In this document: positions 10,654 to 31,314 of the stretch, piece by piece
How positions within the stretch are numbered: the stretch's first letter is position 1
Layout of the letters: each line of letters begins with the position of its first letter
Assembly: GCA_965214705.1 (NCBI GenBank)
Contig: CBDCCI010000002.1
Span: 224,001 to 288,000 of the forward strand
Length of the DNA: 64,000 bases
Source of the DNA: Alphaproteobacteria bacterium
GTDB taxonomy: Bacteria > Pseudomonadota > Alphaproteobacteria > UBA828
Direction of reading: 5' to 3'
Notes under the pieces: model-generated
The model's input: the letters and a program-made list of their open reading frames with translations, nothing else
Databases searched by the model: none
What the model was told of the DNA's origin: nothing
Program-made: the position numbers and the translations under genes

Positions 10654-10655
10654 TC

Positions 10656-12724: not shown

Positions 12725-12815
12725 GGTCGGTGTTCGTATCTGTTGCGTAGAACAATAGTGTATTCAAGATCGAAATATATTGTCAAGCCGGAATGTTCCA
12801 CCTACGTTCCGGCCC
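12725..12815. promoter_or_regulatory. AT-rich divergent control region between repressor and tra operon
   Basis: 91-bp AT-rich spacer between divergent starts; TTGACA on minus strand (12781-12786); TGTTC...GAACA inverted pair. Confidence 0.55.
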
Positions 12816-13538
12816 ATGACCCGATACCGCACCCACTTCCTCGGCGCCATCGACGCCCATATGGAGCGTCACGACATGTCTCCCAGCCGCTTCGGCCGGG
12901 AGACGATGCGCGATCCCACCTTCGTCTTCCGCGTGAAGAAGAAGGGGCGCAATCCGCGCCTGGATACGGTGGACAAGCTGCTGGTCGGGATGGGCCGCGA
13001 ACCGGTCGGGGACCGCTTCGTGGCCGAGGTCAGGGCGTTCCTGGCGGTCACCGGCATAAAGCGCTCGGAGTTCAGCCGCGACGTCAACAGGAACCGGTCC
13101 TTTGCGACCTGGCTGCTCGATGGCGGCCTGCCCCGGCTCGCCACCATGGACAAGGCGGACGCCGTCATGGCCGAGCATACGAACCCGGCCCAGCGCGAGG
13201 CGATCAGGGCGGCGGTCGAGGACGGGGCGCCGGCGGTTCCGGTGGGGAAGGAAGGCAATGAGGAGATGGAGATGACCGAGGACGGCTACATGAGCACCGA
13301 GGAGGCGGCGGAGTTCCTGAAACTGTCGCCCCGCACGCTTCAGGCTTACCGGGGCAGCGGCAAGGGACCGCCGTTCAGCCGTATGGGCAACCGGGCGCGC
13401 TATCTGCGCTCGAAGGTGGCGGAGTGGGCGGCCGCGCGCGAGGCGCGCTCGACCACCGAGGCCGACGAGAAGGAGCGCGAGGAGAGAGCGGCGACCTCGC
13501 CGCCGGACAGGGACGACACCGGGAAGGAGGACAGGTGA
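12816..13538 (+). CDS. DNA-binding protein: two tandem Cro-like HTH units plus excisionase-like HTH
   Basis: Internal repeat (MSPSRFGRE..DPTFV..PRLDTVDK / IKRSEFSRD..NRSFA..PRLATMDK); C-terminal YMSTEEAAEFLKLSPRTLQAYRGSGKGPPF. Confidence 0.78.
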   Translation: MTRYRTHFLGAIDAHMERHDMSPSRFGRETMRDPTFVFRVKKKGRNPRLDTVDKLLVGMGREPVGDRFVAEVRAFLAVTGIKRSEFSRDVNRNRSFATWLLDGGLPRLATMDKADAVMAEHTNPAQREAIRAAVEDGAPAVPVGKEGNEEMEMTEDGYMSTEEAAEFLKLSPRTLQAYRGSGKGPPFSRMGNRARYLRSKVAEWAAAREARSTTEADEKEREERAATSPPDRDDTGKEDR

Positions 13539-13861
13539 TGACTGCAATCTCGAACGACCGCAGGAAGCGCGCACTCCGCATCGCCGTGGGCGCGATCGTC
13601 GCGCTGGCGCTGGCGCTGCTCGGCATCGATGCGGCGCTGGCGACGACGGACACCACCTTCACGGATCCGCTGGACACGGTGACGGGCATGGTGTCCGGCA
13701 CCGGCGGTCAGCTCGCGGCGGCGCTCGCGGTGGGCGCGGCCCTGGTGGGCTCGGTTCTGCGCTTCAACGCGATGCAGCTTCTCGGCGCGGTCGGCGTCGG
13801 CGTGGCGGCGGGCGCGGGCACCGGCATCGTGACCGGCCTGGTCGGCACGGCGATCGTCTGA
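13538..13861 (+). CDS. traA: Conjugative pilin precursor (TraA-like)
   Basis: 107 aa with signal peptide and two hydrophobic helices, directly before traL. Confidence 0.7.
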   Translation: MTAISNDRRKRALRIAVGAIVALALALLGIDAALATTDTTFTDPLDTVTGMVSGTGGQLAAALAVGAALVGSVLRFNAMQLLGAVGVGVAAGAGTGIVTGLVGTAIV

Positions 13862-13870
13862 GAGGCCACA

Positions 13871-14164
13871 GTGAACGACACCGCGCGCCATGCGATCCCG
13901 CGCCGTCTCGACGACCCGGAGCGCTGGCTGTTCTGGACCTTCGACGAGGCGGCGGCACTGCTGGGACCGGCGGTGCTCGGGCTCGCGGCGAACCAGTTCG
14001 TCGCGGGACTGGTGGCCGGCATCGCCGGCTGGCTGCTGCTGCGCCGCGTCAAGCGCGGCGGCGGGGCCAACATCGCGCTCTACGCGCTCTACTGGTTCCT
14101 GCCCGAGTTCGTGCTGCGGCTCCGTGGCACCCCGCCAAGCCATGTCAGGCGGTACTTCGGATGA
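13871..14164 (+). CDS. traL: F-type T4SS TraL
   Basis: IPRRLDDPERWLFWTFDE and LYWFLP motifs. Confidence 0.9.
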   Translation: MNDTARHAIPRRLDDPERWLFWTFDEAAALLGPAVLGLAANQFVAGLVAGIAGWLLLRRVKRGGGANIALYALYWFLPEFVLRLRGTPPSHVRRYFG

Positions 14165-14712
14165 GGCGCGAGGCGATGGACGCGGAGCGCCGCCGGGCGC
14201 GGGACACGCGGGCGGTTCTCGCCGGGCTGCTGGCGCTCGCGGTTCTCTCCAACCTGGTGCTGGCGCACGGGCTGACCAGCCGCGAACGGGTGACCGTGCT
14301 GGTTCCCGCCGTCTCGGGCCCCGCCTGGGAGGTGGGGGAGAGCTGGGCGGGGCGGCGCTACCTGGAGGATGCGGCGCGCACCGCAGCGGTGACGCTGCTC
14401 ACGCTCACGCCCGAAAACGCGGCCCATGTGCGCGAGGCGGTCGCGCGCCTCGCCCATGCCGAGGCCCGGGGCGCTATCGGCGCCTGGGTGGCGTCGGAAG
14501 CCGAGCGGATGGCCCGGCGCGACCTCTCGACCGCGTTCTACCCGAGGAGCATCGAGAGCGACGGGCGCGAACTCAGCGCCGAGATCGCGGGCGAGCTGGT
14601 GACCTGGATCGGGCGCGAGGAGGCTTCGCGGCAGAAGCGGCGCTACCGCCTCGCCTTCCGCATCGACGCGGGCCGGCTCGCGCTGCTGCGTTTCGAGCAG
14701 ATGGAGGACTGA
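14161..14712 (+). CDS. traE: F-type T4SS TraE
   Basis: N-terminal TM, VTVLVP, LLTLTPEN, STAFYP, GELVTWIG; synteny. Confidence 0.88.
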   Translation: MRREAMDAERRRARDTRAVLAGLLALAVLSNLVLAHGLTSRERVTVLVPAVSGPAWEVGESWAGRRYLEDAARTAAVTLLTLTPENAAHVREAVARLAHAEARGAIGAWVASEAERMARRDLSTAFYPRSIESDGRELSAEIAGELVTWIGREEASRQKRRYRLAFRIDAGRLALLRFEQMED

Positions 14713-14714
14713 GC

Positions 14715-15593
14715 ATGACTTTGCACCTTCGTGTAGGCGCGGCTGCCGCGCTGTTTTGCGCACTCATTATATATGCCGCGCTGCCGACCGCCGCGTCCGC
14801 GACGCAGGTCACCAGCACAAGTGTCTCCGGCACAAGTGTCCTGGAGGCGGCGGACCACGCCGAGCTCCCGGCGCAGGTCTCGGCGTCCGGGGTGGTCCGG
14901 ATTGCACTCCTGGGCGACCGCATCGCGCGGGCGGTGAAGAGCGCGGGCCGCTTCGAGATCGAGCACGACACCGCGACCGGCGACCTCTACCTTCGGCCGC
15001 CGGACGCTGCCGGCGGCGGAGCGGACCGCGCCGCGAAAGCCGAGGCGGGACCTGAGGCGGCACCTGCGGCGGGATCTGCGGTCCTGTTCGTGGGCACCGA
15101 GAAGGGCTTTACCTACCGGCTGATCCTGACGCCTGTGGCGGGCGGCCCGGCGCAGGTGCTGATCCGCAACCCGGCGGCGGGGGCGGCCGCAGTCCGCGAA
15201 CCCGCCGCCGGCAATCGGCGCATCGGCGCGCTGGTGCGCCTGATCCGCGCGGTGGCGCGGCGCGAGCCTCTTGCCGGCTATGCGATCCATGCCGGGGGCG
15301 CGTTCCCCGGCACGCGTGTCTCCGGATTGACGGTCATCGGGACCTGGCGGGGCACCGAGGCGTTCCCCCGTCCGCGCTTCTCGGCGCTCGTGTTTGAGGC
15401 CGGCCCTTCGGCGTCCGAAGGCGCGGAGAGTGCCGCGGGCCTCGTCGGGACCATTGGTGGATTGCCGGGGATCGGCCGCGTCGCCGCTCTCTGGCTGGCG
15501 GCGCCCGGCACCGGCCCCTCGGGCGGCAGGCTCGCGGTGGCGGTGCACGAGGACACTCGTGCCGGAGACACGCGTGCCGGAGACTCCCGATGA
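14715..15593 (+). CDS. traK: F-type T4SS TraK
   Basis: Signal peptide, VVRIALLGDRI, TGDLYLRP, LFVGTEKGFTYRLIL; synteny. Confidence 0.85.
   Translation: MTLHLRVGAAAALFCALIIYAALPTAASATQVTSTSVSGTSVLEAADHAELPAQVSASGVVRIALLGDRIARAVKSAGRFEIEHDTATGDLYLRPPDAAGGGADRAAKAEAGPEAAPAAGSAVLFVGTEKGFTYRLILTPVAGGPAQVLIRNPAAGAAAVREPAAGNRRIGALVRLIRAVARREPLAGYAIHAGGAFPGTRVSGLTVIGTWRGTEAFPRPRFSALVFEAGPSASEGAESAAGLVGTIGGLPGIGRVAALWLAAPGTGPSGGRLAVAVHEDTRAGDTRAGDSR
14815..14840 (-). repeat. Intragenic 15-bp-period motif, 2 copies (traK 5' region)
   Basis: GCACAAGTGTC-TCCG-GCACAAGTGTC. Confidence 0.8.
15552..15581 (+). repeat. Intragenic 15-bp motif, 2 copies (traK 3' end)
   Basis: GACACTCGTGCCGGA GACACGCGTGCCGGA. 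Confidence 0.85.
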
Positions 15594-16840
15594 GCGCCCG
15601 CACCGCGCCCGCGGGCGACGGCGAGTCGCGCCGCGCCCGGCGCAACCAGCTGGTGCTGTTCTCCGCGATCGCGGCGGCGGTGCTGATGGTGTTCGCGTTC
15701 TGGCTCGCGGCGGGCGGCAGCGGTCCGCCCAGGCCGGAGGCTCGGATCGATGCCGAGCTCGCGACCCCGGGGACCGCCGAGGAGAGCTGGACCCGGCGCT
15801 CGGAAGCCAGGCTCGGCGCCATGGACGCGCGGCTGCGCGACATGGAGGCCGGGGCGAATCGCGTGAGGCAGGAGAACGAGCGCCTCAGGCAGAAACTTGC
15901 CGCCGACGCCGAGGACGCGAAGCGCACGATCGACAGCCTCGCGGCGAAGATCGGCGAGTTGGAGCGCGCGCGGGCGGGTGAAGAGACCGCCGCAGCGAAC
16001 GGCATGCCGGTCGGCGAGCTGTTCCGGCAGGGCGCCGGGCAGCGGAGCGCCCCGGCGACCGGCGCTGCCGCATCCGGGGCTGCGCCCGAGACCGAGTTGG
16101 TGGCTGAGCCTCTGATCGAGACCTTCCGGCTGGACGGTTCGGGGGAGCGGTTCGACGCGCCCGCTGCCAGGGATATCGGCGCCTGGCTCCCGGCCGGGAG
16201 CCATGCGGAGGCCGTGGTGCTCGCCGGCGTCGACGCCTCCGCCGGGGTCTCGTCCCAGGGCGACCCGCGCCCGGTGCTGCTGAGGATCGTGGGTCCCGCC
16301 TGGACCGCGGCCTCGGACGGTACGGCGCTCGCCGTCGATCTCGACGGCTGTACCGTGACCGGCGCCGCCCATGGCGATCTCTCGTCCGAGAAGGTCTACG
16401 CGAGGCTCAGAACGCTCACCTGTGCCGCAGAAGAGCCCGACACAGTGGTCGAGACGCAGGTCGCGGGGTTCGTCGCGGGCGCCGGCAAGACCGGGGTGCG
16501 CGGCCCCGTGGTGAGCCGCGAGGGCGCTCTGGTCGAGAAGGCCTTCCTCGCCGGCATGGTCTCCGGTCTCGGCGAGGGCGCCGCGAGCGCGTTCGCGCCG
16601 CAGGCCGTCGCGACCGGCGCGGGCGCCGCTGTCGCCAATACCGGCCTCGTCGATATCGGCAGGGCCGGGCTCGGCTCAGGCGCGTCGTCCGCGGGCCGCA
16701 AGGTCGCGGACTACCTGATCCGCCGCGCCGAACAGTACCAGCCGGTGATCCAGCTCCAGGCCGGGACCCGGGTGACGGTGGTGTTCATCGAGGGCGCCTG
16801 GCTCGACGGCAGGACGGAGAAGAAGGGGAGGACCCAATGA
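15590..16840 (+). CDS. traB: F-type T4SS TraB (VirB10-like)
   Basis: TM, coiled coil, LPAGSHAEAVVLAGVDA, GDLSSEKVYARL, GVRGPVVSREG, YLIRRAEQYQPVI. Confidence 0.93.
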   Translation: MSARTAPAGDGESRRARRNQLVLFSAIAAAVLMVFAFWLAAGGSGPPRPEARIDAELATPGTAEESWTRRSEARLGAMDARLRDMEAGANRVRQENERLRQKLAADAEDAKRTIDSLAAKIGELERARAGEETAAANGMPVGELFRQGAGQRSAPATGAAASGAAPETELVAEPLIETFRLDGSGERFDAPAARDIGAWLPAGSHAEAVVLAGVDASAGVSSQGDPRPVLLRIVGPAWTAASDGTALAVDLDGCTVTGAAHGDLSSEKVYARLRTLTCAAEEPDTVVETQVAGFVAGAGKTGVRGPVVSREGALVEKAFLAGMVSGLGEGAASAFAPQAVATGAGAAVANTGLVDIGRAGLGSGASSAGRKVADYLIRRAEQYQPVIQLQAGTRVTVVFIEGAWLDGRTEKKGRTQ

Positions 16841-17520
16841 ACGAACGTAACGGATGGGCCGTGAGAGCGGCCGCCACGGCAATGGCCGCGCTGGCGCTGG
16901 CGGGCTGCTCGGCGACCCATGTGGGCGACGACTGGCAGTGCCCGCTCGCGCAGGGAGAAGTGTGCTCGTCCGTCGCAGCCGCCGATCCGGCAGTGCCGAA
17001 GACACGGGTGCCGGGGACACGCGTGCCGGAGACGCTCGTGCCGGGGACGCTCGTGCCAAAGGCTGGGGCTGGGGGCACCCAAACCCCCGCGGCCAAGGCC
17101 GCGCTCTACCGGCCTCGTGGAGAGCCCGCCGCGGCTTCGGGACGGGCGGCGCAGCGGGATTGCGAATCGGACTGTGGCCCGCTCGCCTGGCTGGCAGGGC
17201 TGCTCGAAGGTTTCGCCGGCGAAGATACGGAAGGCGAAGAGACAGCCGTGACGGGCGAAGGTGCGGCCGGCGAGGAACACTCCGGTCCCACCGATGCGGG
17301 CCGCGAACCGGTCGCTCCCGCCGCCGCTCTGCAGGCTGCGCCCGGCGACGCCTCGATCTCGTCCCCTCCGGCCGATGAAGCCGCCGCCGGAGAGAATTTC
17401 CGCGAGCCCGAGGAGATCGCCCGCATCTGGATCGCGCCCTTCGTGGATGCCGAGGGCATCTACCACGAGGGGGTCTGGGTGCGGGCGGTGATCGCGCCGG
17501 CCGAATGGAGGCTTCCGTGA
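16837..17520 (+). CDS. traV: F-type T4SS lipoprotein TraV
   Basis: Lipobox LAGC, WQCP..C, RIWIAPFVDAEGIYHE. Confidence 0.88.
   Translation: MNERNGWAVRAAATAMAALALAGCSATHVGDDWQCPLAQGEVCSSVAAADPAVPKTRVPGTRVPETLVPGTLVPKAGAGGTQTPAAKAALYRPRGEPAAASGRAAQRDCESDCGPLAWLAGLLEGFAGEDTEGEETAVTGEGAAGEEHSGPTDAGREPVAPAAALQAAPGDASISSPPADEAAAGENFREPEEIARIWIAPFVDAEGIYHEGVWVRAVIAPAEWRLP
17001..17060 (+). repeat. Intragenic 15-bp motif, 4 tandem copies (traV)
   Basis: GACACGGGTGCCGGG GACACGCGTGCCGGA GACGCTCGTGCCGGG GACGCTCGTGCCAAA. Confidence 0.9.
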
Positions 17521-20315
17521 CCGGCCTCGCGCGCCGCCTGCTGGATCTCTTCGAGGGACCGGCCGGGCTGGAGCCCTGGTCGCAGCCCGAGACCGGGGCG
17601 GCGCTGGTGGAGCTCCTGCCCTGGCGCGCCTTCGACGAGCGCGGCGAGCTCTATGTCAACGCGGGCTCGGTCGGGTTCGTCATCGAGATCCCGCCCTTTG
17701 CAGGCATCGACGCCGAGACGCTGGGCGCGCTGGCCGGCACGCTCGCCGATGCCGTGCCCGAGCGCTGCACGGTGCAGGTCATTCACTGGGCGAGCCCCCG
17801 CTTCGGCGCGGCGCTCGACGCCTGGGCCGGGCCGAGGCGGGACGCAGGCAGCGTGCAGGCCGGCATGGCGCGGCGGAGGCTTCGCCTCCTCGGAGGCGCG
17901 GGCTGGCGGGCGTTGCATCCGGGCGGGCCGCCGTTCACGCTGTCGGACTACCGGGCCTTCGTCTGCGCCTCGCTCGCGGGTCCGCCCGGTCCCGCTCCCG
18001 AGACCGCGCTCTCGGCGTTCCGCCGGGCGCTCGAAGGTACCCTGGCGTCCGCCGGTGCAACGACGCGCAGGCTCGCGCCGGACGCGCTGCTGTCGCTCGC
18101 CTCCGAGTTGACGGCGCCCACCCTCGCGCCGCTTCCGGAGCCGGGACACTCGTGCCAAAGCACGGCGACGCCGCTCCACCGCCCGCACAGGCGCTGGTCG
18201 CCGAGGGACGCGCTCCACCTGCAATGCTCCGCGCCCGGCCGCGCGCTCACTGTCGCGCCCACCGGGCTGGTGTTCCACGACGGGGAAACAGGGGACACTC
18301 GTGCGGGAGAACGCCCTGGTGCGCCCCGGTCCGCGAACCGCGGGGACACGCGTGCCGGCGACACGCGTGCCGGCGACGTCGCCGTGCGGGTGCTCAGTGC
18401 GGTGGCCTTCCCCGAGGTGTGGCCGGGCTGGCGCGGCAATGCGCTGATCGGCGACTTCCACCGCGACTTCCTCCAGCCCGGCTGCCCGGTGCTCACCTGC
18501 CTCACGGTCATGACCGGCGAGGCGGCCGACGGCGAGAGGGCTTTCCTCAAATCGGCGCGCGCCACCCAGCAGGCGGGCACCGGCATCGCGAGATACCTGC
18601 CGGGGCTGCCCGAGAAGGCAAGGGACTGGCAGCTCGTCACCGAGCGTCTCAAGGACGGAGAGCGCCTGGTCAGGGCTACGTACATGGCGGCGGTCTACGC
18701 GCCCCTCGACGCCATCGACGAGGCCGAGCAGGCGGTGCGCGCGATCTATCACGGCCAGGGCTGGCGCGTGAGCGCCGAGCGCTACGTCCAGCTTCCCTCA
18801 TGGCTTTCGTGCCTGCCGATGGTGCCGGCCGGGGGGCTCGACGCCGACCTCGCGCGCATGGGCCGGCTGAAGACCCTGCTCACCTCGTCCGCCGTCAACC
18901 TCGCGCCGGTGCACGGCGAGTGGCGCGGCCAGGGGTTCGCGCCGGACAGTCCTCCCGCGCTGTTCCTGATCGGCCGCCGCGGCCAGCCCGCCGGCTGGTC
19001 GCCCTTCGCCAACGACGCCGGCAACTACAACGTCGCCGTCACCGGCAAGTCCGGCTCCGGCAAGTCGGTGCTGATGCAGGAGCTGGTCACCGGCATCGTC
19101 GGCGCCGGCGGCGAGGCCGTGGTGATCGACGACGGCCGGTCGTTCCAGCATGCGGCGGAAGCGCTTGGCGGCGCCTTCATCGCCTTCGGCAAGGACCCGG
19201 CCTGCCTCAACCCCTTCGCCATGATCGACGCCGGGACCGCCGCCCATGACGGCGACTACCGCGAGGAATGCTTCGCCATGCTGGCCGGCGTCATCGGGCG
19301 CATGTGCCGCAGGCGCGGCTCCATCGACGACGTCGAGGCGGCGCTGATCGCGGACGCCATCGCCGCAGCCTGGGACGAGGCCGGCATCGAGGCCGATCTC
19401 GGCGCCGTGCGCCGTCACCTGCAGGCCCGCGACGACCGGCGCGCGGCCGACATGGCGACGGCCTTGGGTCCCTGGTGCCCGGGCGGCGCCATGGGACGGC
19501 TGTTCGCGGGCGCGCACACGCCGGCCCTCGATGCCGCGCTCACCGTGTTCGAGCTCGCCGAGCTCAAGGGCCGGGGCGACGTCCAGGCCGTGGTGCTGAT
19601 GCTGGTGGTCTTCCTCGCCACCCAGCGCATGTATCACGGCGAGCGCACGCGGGCGAAGGCGATCGTCATCGACGAGGCCTGGGACCTGCTCTCGGGCGAG
19701 GACAGCCGCGCCTTCCTCGAAGGCGCCGGGAGGCGGGCGCGCAAGTATCGCGGCTCGCTCGTCACGGGAACCCAGTCGGTCAACGACTACTACGCCAACC
19801 CGGCGGCGCAGGCGGCCTGGGAGAACTCGGACTGGACGATCTTCCTCGCCCAGAAGGACGAGTCGGTCGAGCTGCTCAAGCAGGAGAAGCGCATCCACTG
19901 CGACCCCGGCATGGAGCGGGCGCTGAAGAGCCTGACCACCGCGGAGGGCCGCTACGCGGAGCTGCTGCTGCACGGCCCCGACGGCTGGCGCGTCGCGCGC
20001 CTGGTGCTCGATCCCTGGTCGGTGGCGCTGTTCTCCTCGCGGGGACCCGCGTTCGCCGCCGTCGAGCGGCTCAAGGCCGAGGGGCTCTCCACCGTCGAGG
20101 CCATCGACCGGCTCGCAGGGGACACTCGTGCCGGGGACGCTCCCCTCGCGGGCGAAGACGGCATCGGCATTCCGGAGCCGCCGCCGGGCGGTGCGCCCGC
20201 CGGGGGCGAGCTTGGTCACACCGGCGACGAAACCGGCATCCCCGACGCGCCCGGCGCAGACGGCGGTGCCGATCGCGGCATTGAACATGAGGACGACAAG
20301 GGAGCAAGCGAATGA
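17517..20315 (+). CDS. traC: F-type T4SS ATPase TraC (VirB4-like)
   Basis: GNYNVAVTGKSGSGKS, VIDDGRS, IDEAWDLL, RRARKYRGS, TQSVND; GTGA overlap with traV. Confidence 0.95.
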   Translation: MTGLARRLLDLFEGPAGLEPWSQPETGAALVELLPWRAFDERGELYVNAGSVGFVIEIPPFAGIDAETLGALAGTLADAVPERCTVQVIHWASPRFGAALDAWAGPRRDAGSVQAGMARRRLRLLGGAGWRALHPGGPPFTLSDYRAFVCASLAGPPGPAPETALSAFRRALEGTLASAGATTRRLAPDALLSLASELTAPTLAPLPEPGHSCQSTATPLHRPHRRWSPRDALHLQCSAPGRALTVAPTGLVFHDGETGDTRAGERPGAPRSANRGDTRAGDTRAGDVAVRVLSAVAFPEVWPGWRGNALIGDFHRDFLQPGCPVLTCLTVMTGEAADGERAFLKSARATQQAGTGIARYLPGLPEKARDWQLVTERLKDGERLVRATYMAAVYAPLDAIDEAEQAVRAIYHGQGWRVSAERYVQLPSWLSCLPMVPAGGLDADLARMGRLKTLLTSSAVNLAPVHGEWRGQGFAPDSPPALFLIGRRGQPAGWSPFANDAGNYNVAVTGKSGSGKSVLMQELVTGIVGAGGEAVVIDDGRSFQHAAEALGGAFIAFGKDPACLNPFAMIDAGTAAHDGDYREECFAMLAGVIGRMCRRRGSIDDVEAALIADAIAAAWDEAGIEADLGAVRRHLQARDDRRAADMATALGPWCPGGAMGRLFAGAHTPALDAALTVFELAELKGRGDVQAVVLMLVVFLATQRMYHGERTRAKAIVIDEAWDLLSGEDSRAFLEGAGRRARKYRGSLVTGTQSVNDYYANPAAQAAWENSDWTIFLAQKDESVELLKQEKRIHCDPGMERALKSLTTAEGRYAELLLHGPDGWRVARLVLDPWSVALFSSRGPAFAAVERLKAEGLSTVEAIDRLAGDTRAGDAPLAGEDGIGIPEPPPGGAPAGGELGHTGDETGIPDAPGADGGADRGIEHEDDKGASE
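18294..18374 (+). repeat. Intragenic 15-bp motif, 1+2 copies (traC linker)
   Basis: GACACTCGTGCGGGA at 18294; GACACGCGTGCCGGC at 18345 and 18360. Confidence 0.85.
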
Positions 20316-21028
20316 ACGCACGAACCGGGGAAGACCGGCGGGAGACCGCCGCTGCGGCCGGAGTTGCCGGCGGGCGCCTCGCCTGGCCGGGCGATCCGGA
20401 AGGGATCGCGGCCGCCGACATCGACTTCGAGGCGCTGGCGCACGTGCTGGCCAACACCTGCCGCTTCGGCGGGCGCACCCGGCAGTACCACTCGCTGGCG
20501 GCGCATGCGGTCATCGCGAGCGAGGAGGTCGAGGCGCTCGACGGCCTCGGCGAGGAAGACCGGCGAAATCTCGCGATCCACGCGCTGATCGCGGACGCGC
20601 CGTCGGCCTGGCTGCGGGGCGATCCTTCTTCCTCTCAGCGGGCGGCGAAGCTCGCCGCCGGCATCGAGCGCGCGGTGCGCGAGGCGGCGGGGCTCGATGC
20701 CGTGCTCGGCGACGAGCAGGCGGAACTGCTTCGGTTCGTGTTCCGCATGACCGCCGCGGCCGAACGCCGCGACCTCGCGGACGCCGATGCCGGCGCCGGC
20801 GCCGCGTTCCCGCCGCTGAGAAGGCGCATCCGCGCCGTGGGTCCCGGCCGGGCCGCGAGGCTCTGGCTCGCCCGCTTCCGGGCGCTGACGGGGCCCCGGC
20901 ACGAGTGTCCGTCTGGAGACGCGGGCGCCGCTACCGCAGACACGACCAGCGAGGAGACTCGAGATGGCGCGCACATGCAGGCGAAGGAGGGGGAGACGAA
21001 CCGTGGCGAGATCAGGCAAGCGGCGTGA
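20312..21028 (+). CDS. YfbR-like HD-superfamily protein with degenerate HD motif
   Basis: IDFEALAHVLANTCRFGGRT..YHSLAAH; expected ALLHDA..AY.GD reads ALIADAPSAWLRGD. Confidence 0.7.
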   Translation: MNARTGEDRRETAAAAGVAGGRLAWPGDPEGIAAADIDFEALAHVLANTCRFGGRTRQYHSLAAHAVIASEEVEALDGLGEEDRRNLAIHALIADAPSAWLRGDPSSSQRAAKLAAGIERAVREAAGLDAVLGDEQAELLRFVFRMTAAAERRDLADADAGAGAAFPPLRRRIRAVGPGRAARLWLARFRALTGPRHECPSGDAGAATADTTSEETRDGAHMQAKEGETNRGEIRQAA

Positions 21029-21263
21029 ACGGCGCCGCGGCGGCATTCCGCCCGGAATCAGGGTCGTGCGCGATGCCGAGGAGATGTTCCGCGCGGCGAT
21101 CCTGGCTGGCGTGCTATCCGCCGAGCGTTCCAACCGGAGCTGGGCCGGGCACTACCTCTACATGTTCCATGACGAGGACGGAACCGCCTGGTTCAAGCAC
21201 CGCGACACCCGCGCCTACGTGTCGATGACGGCGCGGCAGCGCGCGGCGGGACACGGGTGGTGA
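20964..21263 (+). CDS. Small hypothetical protein in tra operon (start uncertain)
   Basis: Protein-like core RDAEEMFRAAILAGVLS..YLYMFHDEDGTAWFKHRDTR; stop overlaps trbI start. Confidence 0.5.
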   Translation: MARTCRRRRGRRTVARSGKRRERRRGGIPPGIRVVRDAEEMFRAAILAGVLSAERSNRSWAGHYLYMFHDEDGTAWFKHRDTRAYVSMTARQRAAGHGW

Positions 21264-21628
21264 GCGAGGTCCGGGTGGTCCTCTCCGCCATGCTGCTCGC
21301 CGCCGGCGTTGCCGCGGCGGTCGCGGCCGGCGCGGTGCGCCTGTCCGTGGACGAAGGACCGCGTATCGCGAGCGTGCGGCTCGGTGAACTCGCTGCGGAG
21401 CACGCTGCCGATGCAGCACGCGCGGATTCGACTGCGGAAGAGACCGCCGCAACCGCCCGCGCATGGGCGCTCGCGCTTGAGGATGCGCTCGGCGCGGTGG
21501 CCGCACGAAACGGAGCGGTGCTGCTGCCGGTCCGCGCCGTCGCCGCCGGGGCCCCCGATCTAACGGAGGAGATCCGGCTTGCGCTTGAGGACAGACTGGG
21601 GCGCCCCGGTTCGGAGCCGCGGCCATGA
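21257..21628 (+). CDS. trbI: F-type TrbI-like protein
   Basis: N-terminal TM, AVLLPVRAVAAGAPDLTEEI; position after traC. Confidence 0.75.
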   Translation: MVSEVRVVLSAMLLAAGVAAAVAAGAVRLSVDEGPRIASVRLGELAAEHAADAARADSTAEETAATARAWALALEDALGAVAARNGAVLLPVRAVAAGAPDLTEEIRLALEDRLGRPGSEPRP

Positions 21629-22224
21629 CGGCACCGGCGACGTTCCCCGGCGCGCGGCGCCGCGGCGGCAAGCGGGCCTGGGCCGGGCTCGCGTTCATGG
21701 CGGCGCTGGCCGCGCTGTGGCTCGCGGCGGCCTCGCGGGTGCACGTCAACACGAGCTGGTCGGACGACGCCTGGGGCTACCTGGTGCTGCCTGTCGGCGA
21801 GCCCGCCATCGGCGACACGGTGCTGTTCGAGCCGCGCCCGGATCGGGGTCCGGGCCAGGCGGCGGCGCTGGGCGTGAAGACGCCCTACCTCAAGACCGTT
21901 CGCGGATTGCCGGGCGATGTCGTGACCGTGGACGACGATCGCACCGTGCGCCTCGACGGTGCGCCTGTCGCGCGCGCGAAGAGCCACGCTCTCGACGGGC
22001 GGCCGCTCGAGGCGATCCGGCCGAGCCTCATTCCCGAGGGACACTATTACGTCCACGGCGATCACGCCGACAGCCACGACAGCCGCTACGCGGAGATCGG
22101 GCTGGTGCCGCGCGAGCGTATCCTCGGCCGGGCGATCGCCATGCCGGATCTGCCCTGGCTCGGCCTCGAAGGCCCCCTGGTGGGGCCGGACGATATCGGG
22201 CGCACGGCAGAGACGCGGCGATGA
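21625..22224 (+). CDS. S26 conjugal-transfer peptidase (TrhF-like)
   Basis: VNTSWS, YLKTVRGLPGD, GDHADSHDSRYAEIGLV. Confidence 0.87.
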   Translation: MTAPATFPGARRRGGKRAWAGLAFMAALAALWLAAASRVHVNTSWSDDAWGYLVLPVGEPAIGDTVLFEPRPDRGPGQAAALGVKTPYLKTVRGLPGDVVTVDDDRTVRLDGAPVARAKSHALDGRPLEAIRPSLIPEGHYYVHGDHADSHDSRYAEIGLVPRERILGRAIAMPDLPWLGLEGPLVGPDDIGRTAETRR

Positions 22225-22832
22225 TGCGCGTCCCGCCGCTGCCCTTCCGGTCCGTCGCGGCCGTCTTGATGCCGGCATCTCTCGTGCTGGCGCTGCTGGC
22301 GGCCCAGGCGTCCGCGAAGGACCTCGGCGTGCGCGGCGCCAACTGGGCGGTTGCCGAACCGGACCTGCTGGCGCAGATCGAGGCGCGGCTGACGGAATTG
22401 CAGCGCTCGGGCACGCTGGCGCGGCGCTCGTGGACCTTCGACCCCTCGATCACGGTGGCGCGCGACATCCAGGCGCATGACGGCACGTTGATCGCCGCCG
22501 CCGGGAGCCGCATCGACCCCTTCCGCCACGCGCCGCTGACGCGCGGTCTTCTCTTCATCGACGGCCGGCGCGACGCCGAAATCGCCTGGGCGCTCGCGCA
22601 CGGCAGGCCTTCCAAGATCGTCCTGCTGGCGGGCCGTCCCCTGGAGCTGGCACGGCGTCATGGTCGGCCGTTCTTCTTCGATCAGGGCGGGCGGCTTGCC
22701 GCCCGGCTGGGGCTTCGCTTCACGCCTTCGCTGGTAAGGCGCGACGGTGCGCATCTGCGCATCACGGAAATCCCGCTCGACGAATTCGGGCGCGACTCCT
22801 CGAACGGCGATCAAGGGGTTCCGGCGCGATGA
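22221..22832 (+). CDS. traW: F-type TraW (possibly with in-frame internal deletion)
   Basis: AKDLGVRGANWAVAEPDLL, FDPSITV, LLFIDG, FFFDQGG, TPSLV. Confidence 0.88.
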   Translation: MMRVPPLPFRSVAAVLMPASLVLALLAAQASAKDLGVRGANWAVAEPDLLAQIEARLTELQRSGTLARRSWTFDPSITVARDIQAHDGTLIAAAGSRIDPFRHAPLTRGLLFIDGRRDAEIAWALAHGRPSKIVLLAGRPLELARRHGRPFFFDQGGRLAARLGLRFTPSLVRRDGAHLRITEIPLDEFGRDSSNGDQGVPAR

Positions 22833-23830
22833 AGTCCCTCCGTCTCCTCCTGCTGGCACTCGGACTTCTGATCCTCCTGCCGGCCGGGCATGTGATGGCA
22901 CAGACCTGCACCGGGCGGTTCGTGAACCCGATCACGGACGTCTGCTGGGAGTGCCTGTTCCCGATCTCGATCGGCCCGGTCCGGATCGGCAGCGCCTCCG
23001 GCGCGCCGGACACGCCCAACCCGTCCTCGCCGATCTGCCTCTGCGGCTCGCCCATCCCCCGCATCGGGCTCTCGCTCGGGGTGTAGGAGCCGGCGCGGCT
23101 GGTGGACGTGACCCGGGTTCCCTGGTGCTTTCCCAACCTGGGCGGCCTCACCATCGATCCGGGGCTCCCCGCCGCGCGCGGGCGCACCGGGTCGTCGGGC
23201 GGCGACGGCGCCGCGGGCTCGGTTTGGCACGCACATTATTATGTGTATCCGCTGCTCTCCTGGATCGGGGCGCTGCTCGACCTCGGCTGCCTCGAAGGCG
23301 GCGGCCTGGATATCGCGTGGACCTCGGAGCTCGACCCCTCCTGGCTCGACGACGAGCTCTCGTTCCTGCTCAACCCGGAGGCGGCGCTGTTCGCCAACCT
23401 GCCGGCGCAGGCGGCGTGCGCCGCCGATTGCGCCGCGGCCTCCGCCGGCCTGCCGCAGGACGCACTGTTCTGGTGCGCCGGCTGCCAGGGCGGCATGTAT
23501 CCGCTCACCGGCAACGTCGCCGCCCATGTCGGCGGGGTGCAGGCGTCGCTGCTGGCGGCCCAGCGGCTGGTCTACCGCCTGCACCGCGCCGGGCTCGCCT
23601 GGGGCACCTCCGGGTCCGCCGCGCTCTGCGGGCGCTACCCCATGCCGATCATGAAGAAGAGCCAGTACCGCTGGCAGATGACCCAGCCGGTGCCGGCGAC
23701 GACGCCCGCGACTGGCTGCAACCCGACGGGGCGCTCCTCGGTGCTCTGGGAATCGCTCCGCGAACTGCCCGTCTCGGGCGAGAGCTTCGGCTACCTGCTG
23801 TGGAGGAAACGCACATGCTGCATCTTGTAG
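22829..23830 (+). pseudogene. traU: TraU with in-frame amber stop at 23084-23086
   Basis: CTGRFVNPITDVCWECLFPI ... LGV*EPARLVDV (TAG where TGG/Trp is expected) ... FWCAGCQG, WRKRTCC, all in one frame. Confidence 0.92.
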
Positions 23831-24600
23831 GAAGCCTCGGACAGCGTACTGGAGTTCTCGCCCGAGACGGTCTCGCCGGACTGCTGGTGCTGGCGTTGTG
23901 TGCCGGGCCGGCGTTCGGCGAACAACCCTCGCCGGAATCGCAGGCCCGGGCACTGGCCGACGAGGTTCTGCACAAGGCGGGCGAGGCCGGTCCGCAGGGC
24001 CTGGGCGAGTGGACGCGCTCGGTGATCGGCCGCGCCCTGGAGCGGGCCGGCGATGCCGCCACGGGCACCGCCGGGCGTGCCGGTCCGGCAACCCCCGCGG
24101 AAACCCGCCCCGCTCCGCTTCCGGCCGAGAGACACGCGGCGTCCGTGAAGGCGGGACTCTCCGATCGCGGCGGAAGCACCGCCGAAATTGTCGTCTTCAT
24201 GAGTCTTTCGGTGCCGGCGCCGAGCTGGCGCGAATGGGCGCGCGAGGCGGCGGCGATCGGTGCGCCGCTGGTGCTGCGCGGGGTCGGCGAAGGCGGATTG
24301 CGGCAGACCGTGAAGGCGGTCGGCGAACGGCTTGGCGGGGCGGAGGCGGGCGTCGCCGTCGACCCGCGCCTGTTCCGCCTGTTCGGGATCGACCGTGTGC
24401 CGGCGGTGGTCGTCGCGCCCGGCGGGATTGCCGGCTGCGCGAGCCGGGGCGGCGCGGACGACCCCGCGCCGCCGCACGACATGGTGACCGGAAACATCGG
24501 CCTCGCCGCCGCGCTGGAGGCGATCGCGGCGGAGGGCGAAGCGGCACGCGAAGTCGCTCGCGCCCGGCTCGAACGCCTCGGAGGGGGGCAACGACCATGA
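23815..24600 (+). CDS. trbC: F-type pilus assembly TrbC
   Basis: VFMSLSVP, LVLRG, VDPRLFRLFGIDRVPAVV, DMVTGNI; start uncertain. Confidence 0.87.
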   Translation: MLHLVGSLGQRTGVLARDGLAGLLVLALCAGPAFGEQPSPESQARALADEVLHKAGEAGPQGLGEWTRSVIGRALERAGDAATGTAGRAGPATPAETRPAPLPAERHAASVKAGLSDRGGSTAEIVVFMSLSVPAPSWREWAREAAAIGAPLVLRGVGEGGLRQTVKAVGERLGGAEAGVAVDPRLFRLFGIDRVPAVVVAPGGIAGCASRGGADDPAPPHDMVTGNIGLAAALEAIAAEGEAAREVARARLERLGGGQRP

Positions 24601-25742
24601 CCGTGCAACCCGAAACGCCCATGGGCCGGATCGATGTTCTCATCGACCGCGCCGCGCGGGTCGCGCGGCTGCTGGCCTGGCTCGCCATGTTCGCGCTCGT
24701 CTGCCTGATGCTGTGGGTAGTGTCGGGCATGGCCGCGCGCGCGGAGGACCCTAAGGCGGCCGCGAGGGAAATCGGCCGGACGGGAGCCGCAACGGCGGGG
24801 GCGATCGCGCGGGATGCGGCGAGCACCGCGAAGGTGCCGGGCTATGCGGGCACCAACGTGCCGGAACGCGGCCTCACCGCGGGGATGATGGAGGACGCGG
24901 CGCGGGCGCGCCTCGCCGATCCCGACGATCCCGGCGGCGATGCGGGGCGCACGGTGATCCAGGGGACGGCGTCGCGCCCGGCGGCGAGCGTGCCGGCGGG
25001 CGATCCCGTCGTCGAGCGCTCGGAAGGTATAGCGGCTTCGCCGCAATCGCCCGCTCACCGCGCGGACGGCCTCGCTTCGGGTGGCGTGGCGGACTGCAAT
25101 GCCGGTGTCGGAGACGCCAATACGGGCGGCTCCTGCGGTCGGGCGACGTATTGCGTCGGCGCCGGCTGCGAGACCGTGCAACCGCAATCCAACACCGGCT
25201 TCGTGAACGCGGCGACGCGGCTGAACATGGCGGTCGAGCTCGGCGGCGACGAGTTCGACCGCGGCGACATGCGCTTCTTCACCGGCAAGCGGCGGGCCTG
25301 CACCATCCGCCTGTTCGGCCTCGCCAACTGCTGCACCAACTCGGGCGCGCTGATCGGCATTGCGGGGTGCTCGCGCGAGGAATACGAGCTGGCGAAGGAG
25401 CGCCACGGCGGCAACACCCACTATCTCGGAAGGTACTGCGCGAAGAGGACCCTGTTCGGCATCTGCATCCGCCGGGCGCGGGCGTGGTGCGTGTTCGGCT
25501 CGAAGCTCGGGCGCATCCTGCAGCAGCAGGGCCGCGCCCAGCTCGGCATCGGCTGGGGGAGCTGCCGGGGCCTCACGGTGGCGGAGGTCGAGCGCATCGA
25601 CTTCGACCGCCTCGATCTCTCGGAGTTCACCGAGAACCTGATGGACGGGTCGATGGATCCCTCGGTCTCTCTGCCGGACGGCGGCGACACGAAGGCGACG
25701 ATGCGCACGCGCATCCGCGATTTCTACACGCGGGGCCAGTGA
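24597..25742 (+). CDS. traN: Mating-pair stabilisation TraN (short form)
   Basis: Cys-rich C-terminus: FFTGKRRAC, NCC, HYLGRYC, CVFGSKLGRILQQQGRAQLG, CRGLT, IDFDRLDLSEF. Confidence 0.9.
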   Translation: MTVQPETPMGRIDVLIDRAARVARLLAWLAMFALVCLMLWVVSGMAARAEDPKAAAREIGRTGAATAGAIARDAASTAKVPGYAGTNVPERGLTAGMMEDAARARLADPDDPGGDAGRTVIQGTASRPAASVPAGDPVVERSEGIAASPQSPAHRADGLASGGVADCNAGVGDANTGGSCGRATYCVGAGCETVQPQSNTGFVNAATRLNMAVELGGDEFDRGDMRFFTGKRRACTIRLFGLANCCTNSGALIGIAGCSREEYELAKERHGGNTHYLGRYCAKRTLFGICIRRARAWCVFGSKLGRILQQQGRAQLGIGWGSCRGLTVAEVERIDFDRLDLSEFTENLMDGSMDPSVSLPDGGDTKATMRTRIRDFYTRGQ

Positions 25743-26554
25743 TGGCGCCCTTCCTGAAATACGCCATTGCAGCCATGGGCGTGGCGCTGCCGCTCTTCGC
25801 CCCGGTGTCGATTGCGGCGGAATGGCGATCCTGGTGCGGCGAGCGGGGCGAGACCCCGTCGCTCGGCTGGCACTTCTACTGCGACCGCGAGGAAGACGCG
25901 CAGGAGGCGCAACCCGCCCCATTGCCCCCTTCCGGCAGTGCGGATCGGTCCGCGACCGGGCGCATCGAAGAGATGCGCAAGGCGCTGGAAGAGGCCAGGG
26001 CCGCCGCGATCCTCGATCCCACGACGGAGAACGTGACGGCCTATCTGCGCCTCCAGCAGGAAACATTGCAGCGGGCCGCCGCCTTCTCGGACGCCTTCCG
26101 GCGCACGGTCTGGGCGACGCCGGAGCTCGACTACACGCTGACGCGGCCCGTGGGCGCGCTCGCGAAGCGGCTCTGGTCCGACGGGCGCCGCGACGAGGTC
26201 GCGGACGCCCTGGCAACTCTCGGGGAGCGCTACGGGCTGATCTATCTGGGCCATCCGGACTGCGGCGGGTGCCGGGTGTTCGGACCGCTGCTGCGCGCCT
26301 TCGCCGTGCGCCACGGGCTCGACGTGCTGGCCGTGTCGATGACCGGCGGGCCGCTCGAAGGCTGGCCCGAGGCGGTGCCGGATGGCGGACGGGCCGCCAG
26401 GCTAGGACTGGCCGGCTCACCGCTCCCCGCCGTCGCGTTGTTCGACACGGAAACGAAGAAGGTGCTGCCGGTCGGCTTCGGCGTGCTCGCCGAGGATCAG
26501 CTCGCGGAGCGCATCTTCGTGCTGACGCAACTGGAGCCCGGTCATGATTACTGA
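25742..26554 (+). CDS. traF: F-type TraF (thioredoxin-like)
   Basis: GWHFYC, AILDPTTENVTAY, PELDY, CGGC. Confidence 0.9.
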   Translation: MAPFLKYAIAAMGVALPLFAPVSIAAEWRSWCGERGETPSLGWHFYCDREEDAQEAQPAPLPPSGSADRSATGRIEEMRKALEEARAAAILDPTTENVTAYLRLQQETLQRAAAFSDAFRRTVWATPELDYTLTRPVGALAKRLWSDGRRDEVADALATLGERYGLIYLGHPDCGGCRVFGPLLRAFAVRHGLDVLAVSMTGGPLEGWPEAVPDGGRAARLGLAGSPLPAVALFDTETKKVLPVGFGVLAEDQLAERIFVLTQLEPGHDY

Positions 26555-27995
26555 GTGCAAGAAGGCCGCTGCCGGGGCCGCGCTCGCCGTCCTGCTCGCG
26601 GCCGCGCCGGTCGCCGGCACGAGTGTCTCCGGCACGAGTGTCCGCGCCGACGTGCTCACGGAGATGCAGTCCTTCTGGCAGGGCACGGTCTCGAACGTGA
26701 CCGGCCCGACTGCCTTCGAGGGCCAGGCTTCGGGGCACTGGACGCTCGGCAACCTCTACATGCGCGCCCCGGTGCGCTCGGAGCAGATCGCGACGGTGAA
26801 CCTGCCGTCGTTCCGCGCCGGCTGCGGCGGCATCGACGCCTTCGCCGGCGCCTTCTCCTTCATCGATAGCGACCAGCTCGTGGCCTTCGCCCGCGCGGTT
26901 GCGCAGAACGCCGCCGGCTTCGCCTTCGAGCTGGCGCTGGAGACCATCTCGCCGGTGATCGCCGAGACCATGTCGAAGCTCCGGGCGCTGGCGCAGTGGG
27001 TCAACAGCCAGAACCTCAACAGCTGCGAGACCGCCCAGGCGCTGGTCGGCGCGGTATGGTCGAAGAACGACCGCGCGAGCGCCGCGATCTGCGCCGCCAT
27101 CGGCACCTCGCAGGGGATATTCTCCGACTACGCCGCCGCGAAGCACGGCTGCGGCGCGGACGGCAAGCGCAACTCCACTCTGGCGTCGGCCTCCGGCGCG
27201 ATGGCCGAGCAGGTTCCGGTCAACGTCAACTACGCCTGGAAGGCGGTGCGGGCCTCGTCCTTCCTCTCCGGCGACACGGCGCTTGCCGAGTTCGCCATGT
27301 CGGTCACGGGCACGGTGATCGTCACCGCGCCCACGTCCGATTCCGATACCTCCGGACCCCGGGTGCGCATCCTGGAGCCGCTGGCGCTCGACCGGCGGGT
27401 GACCGAGGTGCTGATGGAGGGGGGCGGCGAGCTTCCCGTCTACCGCTGCGATACCGCGGACCGGTGCCTCAACCCGTCGCTCGGGCGGGCGACCGTCCCC
27501 GCGGGCCGGGGCTTCCGCAACCGCGTGGCGATGCTGCTGCGCGACCTGGTGGACGCGGTGAGAGCGGACACCGCGCCGACTCCCGCCGCGCTCGGACTGG
27601 TCAACCTCACGGTGCTGCCGGTCTACCGGGTCGCCAACGTCGCGGCCGCCTACCGGGGCGCGGTGGTCGACCGGGAGATGGACGCGCTCGCCGAGGCCGT
27701 GGCTCTCGACGTGCTGCACGTCTGGCTGTCCGATTTGCACCGGACGGTGGAGGAGCGCGCGGGCGCGCTCGACATCGCCGACGGCGAGCAGCTCGACCGC
27801 TGGCGCGAGGGCCTGCGTTCCAACCGCACAGCGCTCGCCCGGCACCGCTCGGCGGGCCTGCGGCGGTTCAACACCGCGCTCGGAGTGATCGAGAAGCTCC
27901 GCCTCATCGAGACCGAGCTCGCGGGCGCGCTGAGCGCCGATCTCCGGGCCGCATTGGCGTTCTCGCGCGGCGGCGCGGCGGCCGGGTCCCGGTAG
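26544..27995 (+). CDS. traH: F-type TraH
   Basis: NVTGPTAFEGQASG, PSFRAGCGGIDAFAGAFSFI, NSCETAQALV. Confidence 0.93.
   Translation: MITECKKAAAGAALAVLLAAAPVAGTSVSGTSVRADVLTEMQSFWQGTVSNVTGPTAFEGQASGHWTLGNLYMRAPVRSEQIATVNLPSFRAGCGGIDAFAGAFSFIDSDQLVAFARAVAQNAAGFAFELALETISPVIAETMSKLRALAQWVNSQNLNSCETAQALVGAVWSKNDRASAAICAAIGTSQGIFSDYAAAKHGCGADGKRNSTLASASGAMAEQVPVNVNYAWKAVRASSFLSGDTALAEFAMSVTGTVIVTAPTSDSDTSGPRVRILEPLALDRRVTEVLMEGGGELPVYRCDTADRCLNPSLGRATVPAGRGFRNRVAMLLRDLVDAVRADTAPTPAALGLVNLTVLPVYRVANVAAAYRGAVVDREMDALAEAVALDVLHVWLSDLHRTVEERAGALDIADGEQLDRWREGLRSNRTALARHRSAGLRRFNTALGVIEKLRLIETELAGALSADLRAALAFSRGGAAAGSR
26614..26642 (-). repeat. Intragenic 15-bp motif, 2 copies (traH signal-peptide junction)
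   Basis: CCGGCACGAGTGTC TCCGGCACGAGTGTC. Confidence 0.85.
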
Positions 27996-28012
27996 CGGAC
28001 GGAGTGAGCGGC

Positions 28013-30901: not shown

Positions 30902-30906
30902 GCGCG

Positions 30907-31314
30907 TCAGATGCCGCGGTCGTGGTTGCGGAGCCCGTGGTCCTCCAGCAGGCGCTCGCGGTCCTCGGCGATGCGCATGTACGCGAACGCGCCGGTGCGG
31001 GTGCTCCAGTCGAAGCCTTCCGCATCGGTGTCGGGAAGACACCCGCGCCCGCGGCCGCCGAAGGCCGGCCGGTCGCCATGCGCGAGGCCGCATCCGAGCG
31101 CGGCGGCGAGGCTGGCGATCGCCGTCCAGGCGACAGCAATCACCCACACGAATCCGACGATCTCGCCGTCCGCGCCGAGGAGGAGCGAGACGGCGGTAAC
31201 GGGCACGGCCAGCGCCAATCCGCCGAGCACGAAGGCGCGCTCCCGCCGGGTGGAGCGGCGCGGCATGCGAGGCCGCCCCGTGCCGTCGGGCGGCGGTGTC
31301 GACGTGCGTGCCAT
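30907..31314 (-). CDS. Small two-TM membrane protein convergent on traG (entry-exclusion candidate)
   Basis: GGAGG upstream of ATG; two hydrophobic segments; stop 5 bp from traG stop. Confidence 0.55.
   Translation of the reverse strand: MARTSTPPPDGTGRPRMPRRSTRRERAFVLGGLALAVPVTAVSLLLGADGEIVGFVWVIAVAWTAIASLAAALGCGLAHGDRPAFGGRGRGCLPDTDAEGFDWSTRTGAFAYMRIAEDRERLLEDHGLRNHDRGI

Follow-up and report, generated by a model that had tools for sequence, protein, structure and literature searches.

An F-type conjugative transfer operon lies at 13871-33728 (plus strand, assigned by Pfam) of the 64,000-nucleotide stretch analysed here (contig CBDCCI010000002.1 of an alphaproteobacterium, positions 224,001 to 288,000; called the window below), and its genes contain a quasi-palindromic 15-bp unit with the consensus GACAC(T/G)CGTGCCGG(A). 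Comparison with related loci indicates that this motif is an inserting repeat at the DNA level; conservation of a peptide does not explain it. In its behaviour the unit is a dispersed, non-autonomous repeat of very small size that lives inside conjugative elements. To the reading we prefer we give roughly an even chance: GACAC(T/G)CGTGCCGGA would be a coding-compatible micro-repeat, spread by microhomology-templated copying, grown by slippage and filtered by selection.

The window holds 17 good units, and two decayed ones in the traV array, spanning 14811-26642. An earlier note on this stretch had reported about 16 copies across the tra region. Its coordinates agree with ours within 1-2 bases. 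The core GRCACNNGTGYC has 13 matches in the window, whereas 100 dinucleotide-preserving shuffles gave 0.33 on average and 3 at most. The 14-mer GACACKCGTGCCGG, with T or G at position 6, has 16 matches with at most two mismatches in the tra block 13800-31600 (ten exact, four with one mismatch, two with two) and none in the other 46.2 kb of the window. At three mismatches the matches are background, 32 observed and 32.1 expected.

Every copy in the window is intragenic, and throughout the units fall in flexible leader, linker or tail segments of the proteins. TraK contains three groups: two units of the CACTTGTG variant at 14811-14840 (minus strand, residues ~38-47), directly after the signal peptide (..PTAASA, then TQVTSTSVSGTSV); one unit at 15306-15320 (minus, residue ~203, PGTRV); and two units plus a partial GAC at 15552-15584 (plus, units 15552-15581), which encode the C-terminus DTRAGDTRAGD and end 9 bases upstream of the traK stop and the traB start. 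Near the N-terminus of TraV, four units at 17001-17060 (plus, two good and the last two decayed) encode residues 55-74, KTRVPGTRVPETLVPGTLVPK. The traC units, all on the plus strand, lie in a variable part of the protein and near its end: single units at 18145-18159 (residue 214, GHSCQ), 18294-18308 (residue 264, DTRAG) and 20121-20135 (residue 873), and a pair of the G type at 18345-18374 (residues 281-290). One unit at 20895-20909 (minus) encodes PRHECP near the C-terminus of a 238-aa open reading frame (ORF), and two at 26613-26642 (minus) encode AGTSVSGTSV at the signal-peptide junction of TraH (residues 24-33).

The core is a 12-bp imperfect palindrome that occurs in both orientations; 11 of the window units are on the plus and 6 on the minus strand, mixed relative to the operon. 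The peptides they encode are T/SGTSV, PGTRV, DTRAG, TRVPG/TLVPG, GHSCQ and RHECP. Our own unit table agrees with the earlier observation that five of the six frames are used and that the reading frame is intact at every unit. Freedom from stop codons in all six frames was considered as a special property of the unit and rejected, as 43% of unit shuffles and 53-65% of random 15-mers of the same composition share it. Public assemblies from four runs of two studies were compared over 14700-27100; their contigs are short, break at or near arrays and mix paralogues. Contigs of run X4 cover 14700-15248 with 0 differences, and contigs of runs X1 and X6, from two studies, cover approximately 16912-17595 with 0 differences. 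Because these independent contigs carry identical arrays, the traK-leader and traV arrays are not an assembly artefact.

In the whole genome (7.92 Mb, three contigs) there are 45 exact copies, compared with 0 for the reversed control. All but one (44 out of 45) are in five conjugation loci that make up about 1% of the genome. Three are F-type: the window locus (W) and the paralogues A (C1:1.957-1.977 Mb) and B (C1:3.022-3.046 Mb), which are near-identical and inverted. The other two, R1 (C1:1.276-1.306 Mb) and R4 (C1:3.442-3.482 Mb), are unrelated to these and have no genes in common with them; according to Pfam they are I-type, Dot/Icm-like systems with a thin pilus, and they encode DotH/IcmK, DotI/IcmL, TcpQ-domain proteins, PilS, a PilV shufflon N-domain, T2SSE ATPases, a coupling protein and SSB. 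The single remaining copy is in a thiamine-enzyme-like gene and fits chance, for which base composition predicts about 0.6 copies. There is also a fourth F-type paralogue, D (C1:1.838-1.855 Mb), whose proteins are 60-80% identical to those encoded in the window; its 17 kb contain no unit with one mismatch or less. More than 30 independent sites of the unit fall within about 100 kb of unique conjugative DNA, and the ~7.8 Mb of chromosome contain none beyond chance.

We aligned the four F-type loci with MAFFT. D is empty at all 14 sites, and W differs from A and B by clean gaps of 15n bp. At window position 15448 both W and D read CTCG(T/C)CGG^GACCAT (^ marks the insertion point), where A and B carry 45 bp, i.e. 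three units. The 15 bp of the 18145 unit are present in W only and absent from A, B and D, with A and B reading AACCGG^GCACGG; the 15 bp of the 20121 unit are also restricted to W, and the empty site in A, B and D is GGGG^GACGCTCC. At shared sites the number of units varies: in the traK leader it is two in W and three in A/B, at 15306 one and two, in traV four and 5-6 (partly decayed), and at 18345 two and one, with none in D at any of these sites. An alignment of the tra genes with their relatives had been proposed in the earlier note, together with four explanations of the motif. The best fit among the four is a very small coding-compatible mobile repeat, since the insertions that distinguish homologous genes are clean, measure 15n bp and vary in position. 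The claim that the signal is one of DNA and not of peptide also holds: several frames and both strands are used, and relatives are without the peptides rather than recoding them.

A flank-anchored comparison of 122 arrays from 28 loci gives many further pairs of filled and empty sites, in I-type loci and in other genomes. L018 carries 30 bp that R1, R4 and L037 lack, L036 has 30 bp more than A/B and L035 30 bp more than R4; L038 exceeds both R4 and L032 by 15 bp, and R4 exceeds L018 by 45 bp. Copy numbers at shared sites are 3, 4 and 2 in L022, L025 and L030, and 5 in L035 compared with 1 in R4. An empty site looks much like the point where one unit meets the next, roughly GG(R)^GA(C). In a set of 109 non-redundant arrays, from which the near-duplicates B, L028 and L029 had been removed, GA follows the linker base in 82 and GAC in 48, while a purine precedes in 103. 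Identity between the flanks is short and variable (0-6 bases), not a fixed target-site duplication, and the right-hand copy is usually the canonical CCGGAGAC and not a duplicate of the local target.

The unit DNA is identical across genes whose flanks are only 45-90% identical, and it falls into the subfamilies T, G, TT and CCC..GGG. One array in L035 has three successive units with the same mutation (GACACTGGTGCCGGA x3); such runs of one identical mutated unit point to slippage within arrays. Decayed units stand beside perfect ones, for instance in traV of A and B, which shows birth and death of units. The compared loci show that copies are gained as exact 15-bp multiples at junction-like sites, that arrays grow and contract in unit steps, that old units decay through point mutations, and that selection favours permissive protein regions. 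Overall all six frames are used, with the readings DTRAG, PETLV and SGTSV dominating; the frames of arrays outside the window are approximate, as the codon-score gene caller performs poorly in these loci and some of the low-scoring ORFs may be incorrect.

Within the genus, 15 of 20 further genomes contain the exact 14-mer, and the reversed control has 0-1 matches. Outside the genus, 3 of 20 genomes have it, each with a single match. On long contigs the copies in congeners are clustered: 25 of the 27 matches in G003 lie within 25 kb and 16 of the 21 in G008 within 27 kb. Neither of these two genomes has a TraC match, so their carriers are probably I-type loci. Several genomes rich in F-type TraC genes have few units; G005 has about seven such loci and 5 units. 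G002 has one locus and 0 units.

With the 20-mer GACACKCGTGCCGGAGACAC, and one genome per species, we found 23 stretches, all in metagenome-assembled genomes whose titles name Rhodospirillales, Thalassobaculaceae or Alphaproteobacteria, except one Rhodothermales. According to tblastn, 18 of them are in homologues of F- or I-type loci and one is beside a transposase. Two are in a RadC-like gene adjoining a Strawberry-notch-type helicase gene, one is at the start of an aspartyl/lysyl-tRNA synthetase (aspS) gene, and one is in SdhD, where it encodes part of the C-terminal tail (..APETRVPETRVPETLVP..); this genome has a size of 1.6 Mb, a local GC of 54% and no other copy. This SdhD array (L039:2440-2532, genome G041) is just ahead of sdhA, and the closest relative, G046, has a different, shorter tail. 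A metagenome scan gave 27 stretches, 21 of them homologous to F or I loci. The others are in a TrwC-type relaxase gene, a MobA/MobL-AAA_30 relaxase gene and a hydantoinase gene (one each), and at the N-terminus of a HATPase_c protein (three). The MobA/MobL case is on a metagenome contig with 47% GC (L050:3968-4012), where three units, two of them decayed, lie in a 2508-aa open frame with MobA/MobL relaxase, AAA_30 helicase and DUF6371 domains. There were 0 matches to the 20-mer in the viral collection, and a megablast search of the plasmid collection with traB-traC gave a 46-bp match only. The statement of the earlier note that no good copy lies outside the tra region therefore stands within the window and fails for tra genes as such, given the copies in the unrelated I-type loci, in genes for relaxases and, in other genomes, in some ordinary genes.

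Eleven of the 15 positions are nearly invariant among 245 collected units, a figure that is biased by the criterion used to collect them. The palindrome-symmetric positions 4 and 9 covary (A-T 163, C-G 15 and G-C 6, versus 25 single changes), with a mutual information of 0.26 bit, the next pair having 0.12. The A.C mismatch at positions 2/11 is kept in 195 of 218 units. R1 also contains arrays of a sister 15-bp unit, GACCCTCGGGCCGGA, at C1:1289453-1289507 and in the neighbourhood (L009:12940-15484), which is the main unit with a symmetric double change; one of these arrays has 3.7 perfect copies. Another array in R1 has a period of 33 bp and four copies, and contains the unit.

Under the micro-repeat reading, a nascent DNA end finishing in ..GGR/GAC would mispair with an existing array, mostly nearby on the same element (in cis), copy one unit or more and return through the same microhomology of 2-6 nt, i.e. 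by copy-choice or template switching. Later slippage inside arrays would alter the copy number. Hits on both strands would be compatible with template switches between the leading and the lagging strand. No insertion truncates a protein, since 15 bp is a multiple of three and all frames of the unit are free of stops, and selection would then clear copies except in cleaved leaders, signal-peptide junctions, linkers and tails. The dominance of the benign readings DTRAG, PETLV and SGTSV fits such a filter, as selection would act on random insertions. The encoded peptides would be by-products, and no dedicated function of the unit would be required. The confinement to conjugative DNA might come from local seeding together with the single-stranded replication stages of transfer, which is our guess. 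Speaking for this reading, the unit is found in non-homologous genes of unrelated systems: F-type, I-type/thin-pilus, TrwC- and MobA/MobL-type relaxase, and RadC/helicase.

Several points weigh against it. Template switching is deduced from the anatomy of the junctions. Passive copy-choice alone explains neither the ~7.8 Mb without copies beyond chance nor the unit-free F-type paralogue D (17 kb) that resides in the same genome. Copies occur in a 54% GC genome and on a 47% GC contig, which implies that the bare unit has passed between unrelated genomes, and such a transfer is hard for a purely local process. The 4/9 covariation suggests a palindrome constraint that a neutral repeat does not need; it could be mimicked by two spreading subfamilies or by hairpin-templated mutation. 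Finally, the near-identical A and B show no change in unit number, and 2-3 of their 34 differences (13,166 columns) fall in units. As A and B keep equal unit numbers, turnover of units is not fast. With the same figures, faster change inside units was a candidate that we did not find convincing.

It is possible, though we think it somewhat unlikely, that an active process or a signal, shared by conjugative elements of this bacterial community, is tied to the 15-mer, either as templated insertion coupled to transfer or as a common cis-acting mark. In the first form, unit-length single strands would be written into GGR^GAC sites, those in genomes of unrelated recipients included; in the second, a factor of the host or of the element would recognise the mark on two type IV secretion families that are unrelated.

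The rival that comes next, which we regard as unlikely, takes the units as functional double-strand sites for a dimeric or ribbon-helix-helix-like protein, encoded by the host or the element, that coats, silences, pairs or marks transfer operons; selection in conjugative elements would keep rare insertions that are lost elsewhere. The imperfect palindromic core in both orientations, the near-invariant positions (with the bias noted above) and the covarying 4/9 pair agree with this. It would also explain the confinement to unrelated conjugative elements across at least 15 species without an insertion mechanism specific to these elements. What is missing is a candidate binder common to the loci: a tblastn search with all window ORFs against R1, R4 and their 40-kb flanks returned only a 60-aa HTH_17 segment, and the HTH_17 family is present also at the unit-free D. 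The earlier note had suggested sites for one of the element's three helix-turn-helix (HTH) regulators. This is not supported for the HTH_17 protein, nor for the two HTH+S24 repressors, which are restricted to W, A and B and absent from the I-type loci R1 and R4. KorB- or ParB-like sites, to which that note compared the motif, are not supported either: the ParB_N family PF02195 matches five times in the whole genome, in no case at or beside one of the five loci, and not in the scanned window ORFs. Moreover, all sites are intragenic insertions and not promoter sites, decayed units are common, and the linker CCGGA and the centre TC are conserved like the arms, a better fit to copying than to recognition. 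A symmetric double change would be expected to weaken the binding of a symmetric protein, not to be favoured, and the stray copies in sdhD, aspS and the hydantoinase gene have no evident use.

That the units act as single-strand structures, either in transfer (priming, recognition by a relaxase or HUH enzyme, protection of the T-strand) or in mRNA, or that they are inserted by an HUH enzyme, we hold to be decidedly unlikely. In the insertion version a relaxase or a Y2 rolling-circle transposase would nick GGR^GAC and join unit-length single strands, and precise insertion with a short conserved joint and no target duplication is what HUH strand transfer would give. The link to DNA with a single-stranded stage is strong (type IV secretion loci, three kinds of relaxase gene, RadC/helicase genes of leading regions), complementarity of positions 4 and 9 is maintained by covariation in two variant families, C-G and G-C, and neighbouring units of the G type can pair into a stem of 8-9 bp. 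However, a lone unit needs a 2-nt loop and all 11 array segments fold no better than dinucleotide shuffles (z from -1.1 to +1.0), so the single-stranded hairpin signals put forward earlier are not supported. The orientation is mixed although one strand alone is transferred, the relaxase candidates of the F loci are unrelated to those of the I loci, no Y1 transposase was found in the genome, and the window has no unit-like sequence outside 14.8-26.6 kb, where the origin of transfer is expected. Excision footprints of a transposon or insertion sequence, made of a target duplication and a few terminal bases, would account for the fixed size of 15 bp and for some short flanking direct repeats, such as GGGGAC..GGGGAC at window 20115-20141, in a genome that is rich in insertion sequences. 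We judge them very improbable: the variable flanking repeats with a mostly canonical right-hand copy do not fit, no parent element with matching ends was found, and head-to-tail arrays of up to five units with runs of mutated units fit slippage, not repeated excision. Hardly any weight goes to selection of the peptide as a pentapeptide linker module such as PETLV, with the identity of the DNA as a by-product. It would explain the dominant readings and the placement in flexible regions, but unrelated peptides result from five frames in the window and six overall, homologues are without the segment rather than conserving it in other codons, and the DNA is identical across genes in spite of the divergent flanks.

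Compared with known systems, the units share with variable-number tandem repeats their head-to-tail copies and the unit-step variation expected of slippage; they do not look like repeats that arise locally and are specific for one locus, as one 15-mer is at more than 30 non-homologous sites. The genome-wide spread expected of HIP1, uptake sequences or Chi is not seen. Small dispersed repeats (SDRs) of cyanobacteria, reportedly described by Elhai and colleagues in 2008, are said to be 21-27 nt long, genome-wide and mostly outside or between genes. The likeness to SDRs is in the very short length, in mobility deduced from filled and empty orthologous sites and in the lack of a known transposase; the differences are their 21-27 nt, their mostly extragenic location and their sequences, which are unrelated to the unit here. 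KorB operators and ParB-type sites are mostly located at promoters and depend on a cognate protein of the ParB family that the element encodes, whereas our units have no ParB_N gene in their vicinity and are all in-frame intragenic insertions. Like our units, the KorB operators of IncP are short palindromes scattered in transfer regions. The BisD sites of ICEclc have the same likeness.

Rickettsia palindromic elements (RPEs) are about 150 bp long, occur in frame in unrelated protein genes and are regarded as selfish DNA (Ogata et al. 2000, 2002, as described in PMC10969869). By that description RPEs and our unit are both palindromic families found in frame in unrelated genes and tolerated in permissive parts of proteins, but RPEs are single insertions throughout the genome, whereas the unit has 15 bp, forms arrays of 1-5 and is confined to conjugative elements. 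Orthologous filled and empty sites and in-frame coding insertions are as expected of RPEs and of miniature inverted-repeat transposable elements; the terminal inverted repeats, target duplication and length of ~50-400 bp are not found, the unit being 15 bp with flanking identity of 0-6 bases. PARCELs are described as a protein motif of 25 residues (75 bp) conserved at the peptide level (PMC2996958). They resemble our unit, in that account, by intragenic tandem repeats, dyad symmetry of the DNA, a link to mobile elements and apparent movement between taxa, and differ from it in that the unit is 15 bp long and shows no peptide conservation. REP sequences and REPINs are, in the account of PMC3116915, longer hairpin doublets that are extragenic and depend on the Y1 enzyme RAYT. 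They too are short, palindromic, dispersed repeats multiplying within a genome, but our units are intragenic direct repeats without excess folding, and PF01797 (Y1_Tnp) has 0 matches in this genome, which is 98.5% complete. HIP1 of cyanobacteria, an over-represented, intragenic short palindrome, is described as a genome-wide 8-mer arising by substitution (PMC5861425). Our 15-mer, in contrast, arises by insertion, and it does so in conjugative elements only. Compared by description, none of RPEs, SDRs and PARCELs is as short, forms such arrays or is tied to conjugative elements. A literature search, covering articles but not their supplements, on the motif strings and on short in-frame, palindromic or conjugative repeats returned no description of such a repeat.

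If the micro-repeat reading holds, few dispersed repeats known to multiply within protein-coding genes would be as small as the unit. It would be the first known to us that is specific to conjugative elements, crossing between F-type, I-type, TrwC- and MobA-type systems and between genomes of very different base composition. The units give a natural map of where type IV secretion proteins tolerate five extra residues, similar to a natural pentapeptide-scanning mutagenesis. They can serve as a tag by which a mobile-element family is followed through metagenomes, and they are a tractable case for how very short sequences reach new sites by copying. Should a mechanism or a signal lie behind the confinement, this would indicate an unknown DNA-processing or control step in conjugation, and transfer-coupled insertion, if true, would make the unit the smallest known to transpose and a scar of conjugation.

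The operon that hosts the units contains traL, traE, traK, traB, traV, traC, orf238, trbI, an S26 peptidase gene, traW and trbC, followed in our list by traN, traF, traH, traG and a TrwB/TraD-type coupling protein gene. Pfam families on the unit-bearing genes are TraK_N, TraV, TraC_F_IV and TraH, and TraL, TraE, TraB/TrbI-like, TrbI_Ftype, TraW, TrbC, TraN, TraF and TraG_N were found on others. The 238-aa ORF (20312-21028) has no Pfam match, which leaves its earlier name, the HD gene, unsupported. Upstream of the operon, at 11271-13538, are two genes for CI-like HTH+S24 repressors (minus strand) and one for a 252-aa HTH_17 protein (plus strand); these are the binders that the earlier note had in mind, and in our view they probably do not bind the units.

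Adjoining the coupling protein gene, a 1025-aa ORF at 33718-36795 (minus) has counterparts with 46-59% identity at A, B and D and no Pfam match; by its position it could be a relaxase. At 8046-10764 (minus) the transfer module adjoins a restriction-modification pair, a BsuBI/PstI-type endonuclease and an Eco57I/N6-type methylase. Groups of adjacent ORFs at 14-2757 and 59307-61592 have paralogues, with 36-93% identity, beside A, B, D and R4; they may encode recombinases or belong to insertion sequences.

Between 11815 and 14718 the window is closely similar to C1:1975.8-1978.7 kb at paralogue A, where the regulators, a pilin gene, traL and traE are 97-100% identical, and from the start of traK the identity of W and A falls to ~65%. 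This block is a recent recombination tract. Unit arrays were considered as recombination junctions and rejected: the 2.9-kb, 97%-identical block (100% in its last stretch) ends at 14682-14714, at the border of traE and traK, about 100 bp ahead of the first array and not at an array.

Besides the units, no more than two short segments of DNA are common to the F and I loci, and this shows that the loci have exchanged sequence. R4 (C1:3438006-3442922) and D (C1:1832154-1838052) share an upstream module with an autotransporter-like protein, a ~180-aa protein and a short HTH_17 protein, and R4 retains a fragment that resembles the F-type pilin gene. Therefore, F- and I-type systems have swapped regulatory modules.

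A high-copy repeated element was rejected as a source of the unit. The variant GACGCTCGCGCCGG has 98 matches in the genome, 88 of them at one fixed place in this element, near one of its ends, e.g. at L048:2400-2540 (C3:289400-289540), just right of the window. The element has no Rfam match, and the one ORF scanned in it (minus strand) has no Pfam match. We treat the presence of GACGCTCGCGCCGG in it as a coincidence, with an estimated chance of roughly 0.1 per element.

In paralogue B, an insertion of 2.4 kb (C1:3024260-3026692) splits the junction of traK and traB about 50 bp past the C-terminal array of traK. Its ORFs are 99-100% identical to window 37187-39122, an insertion sequence.

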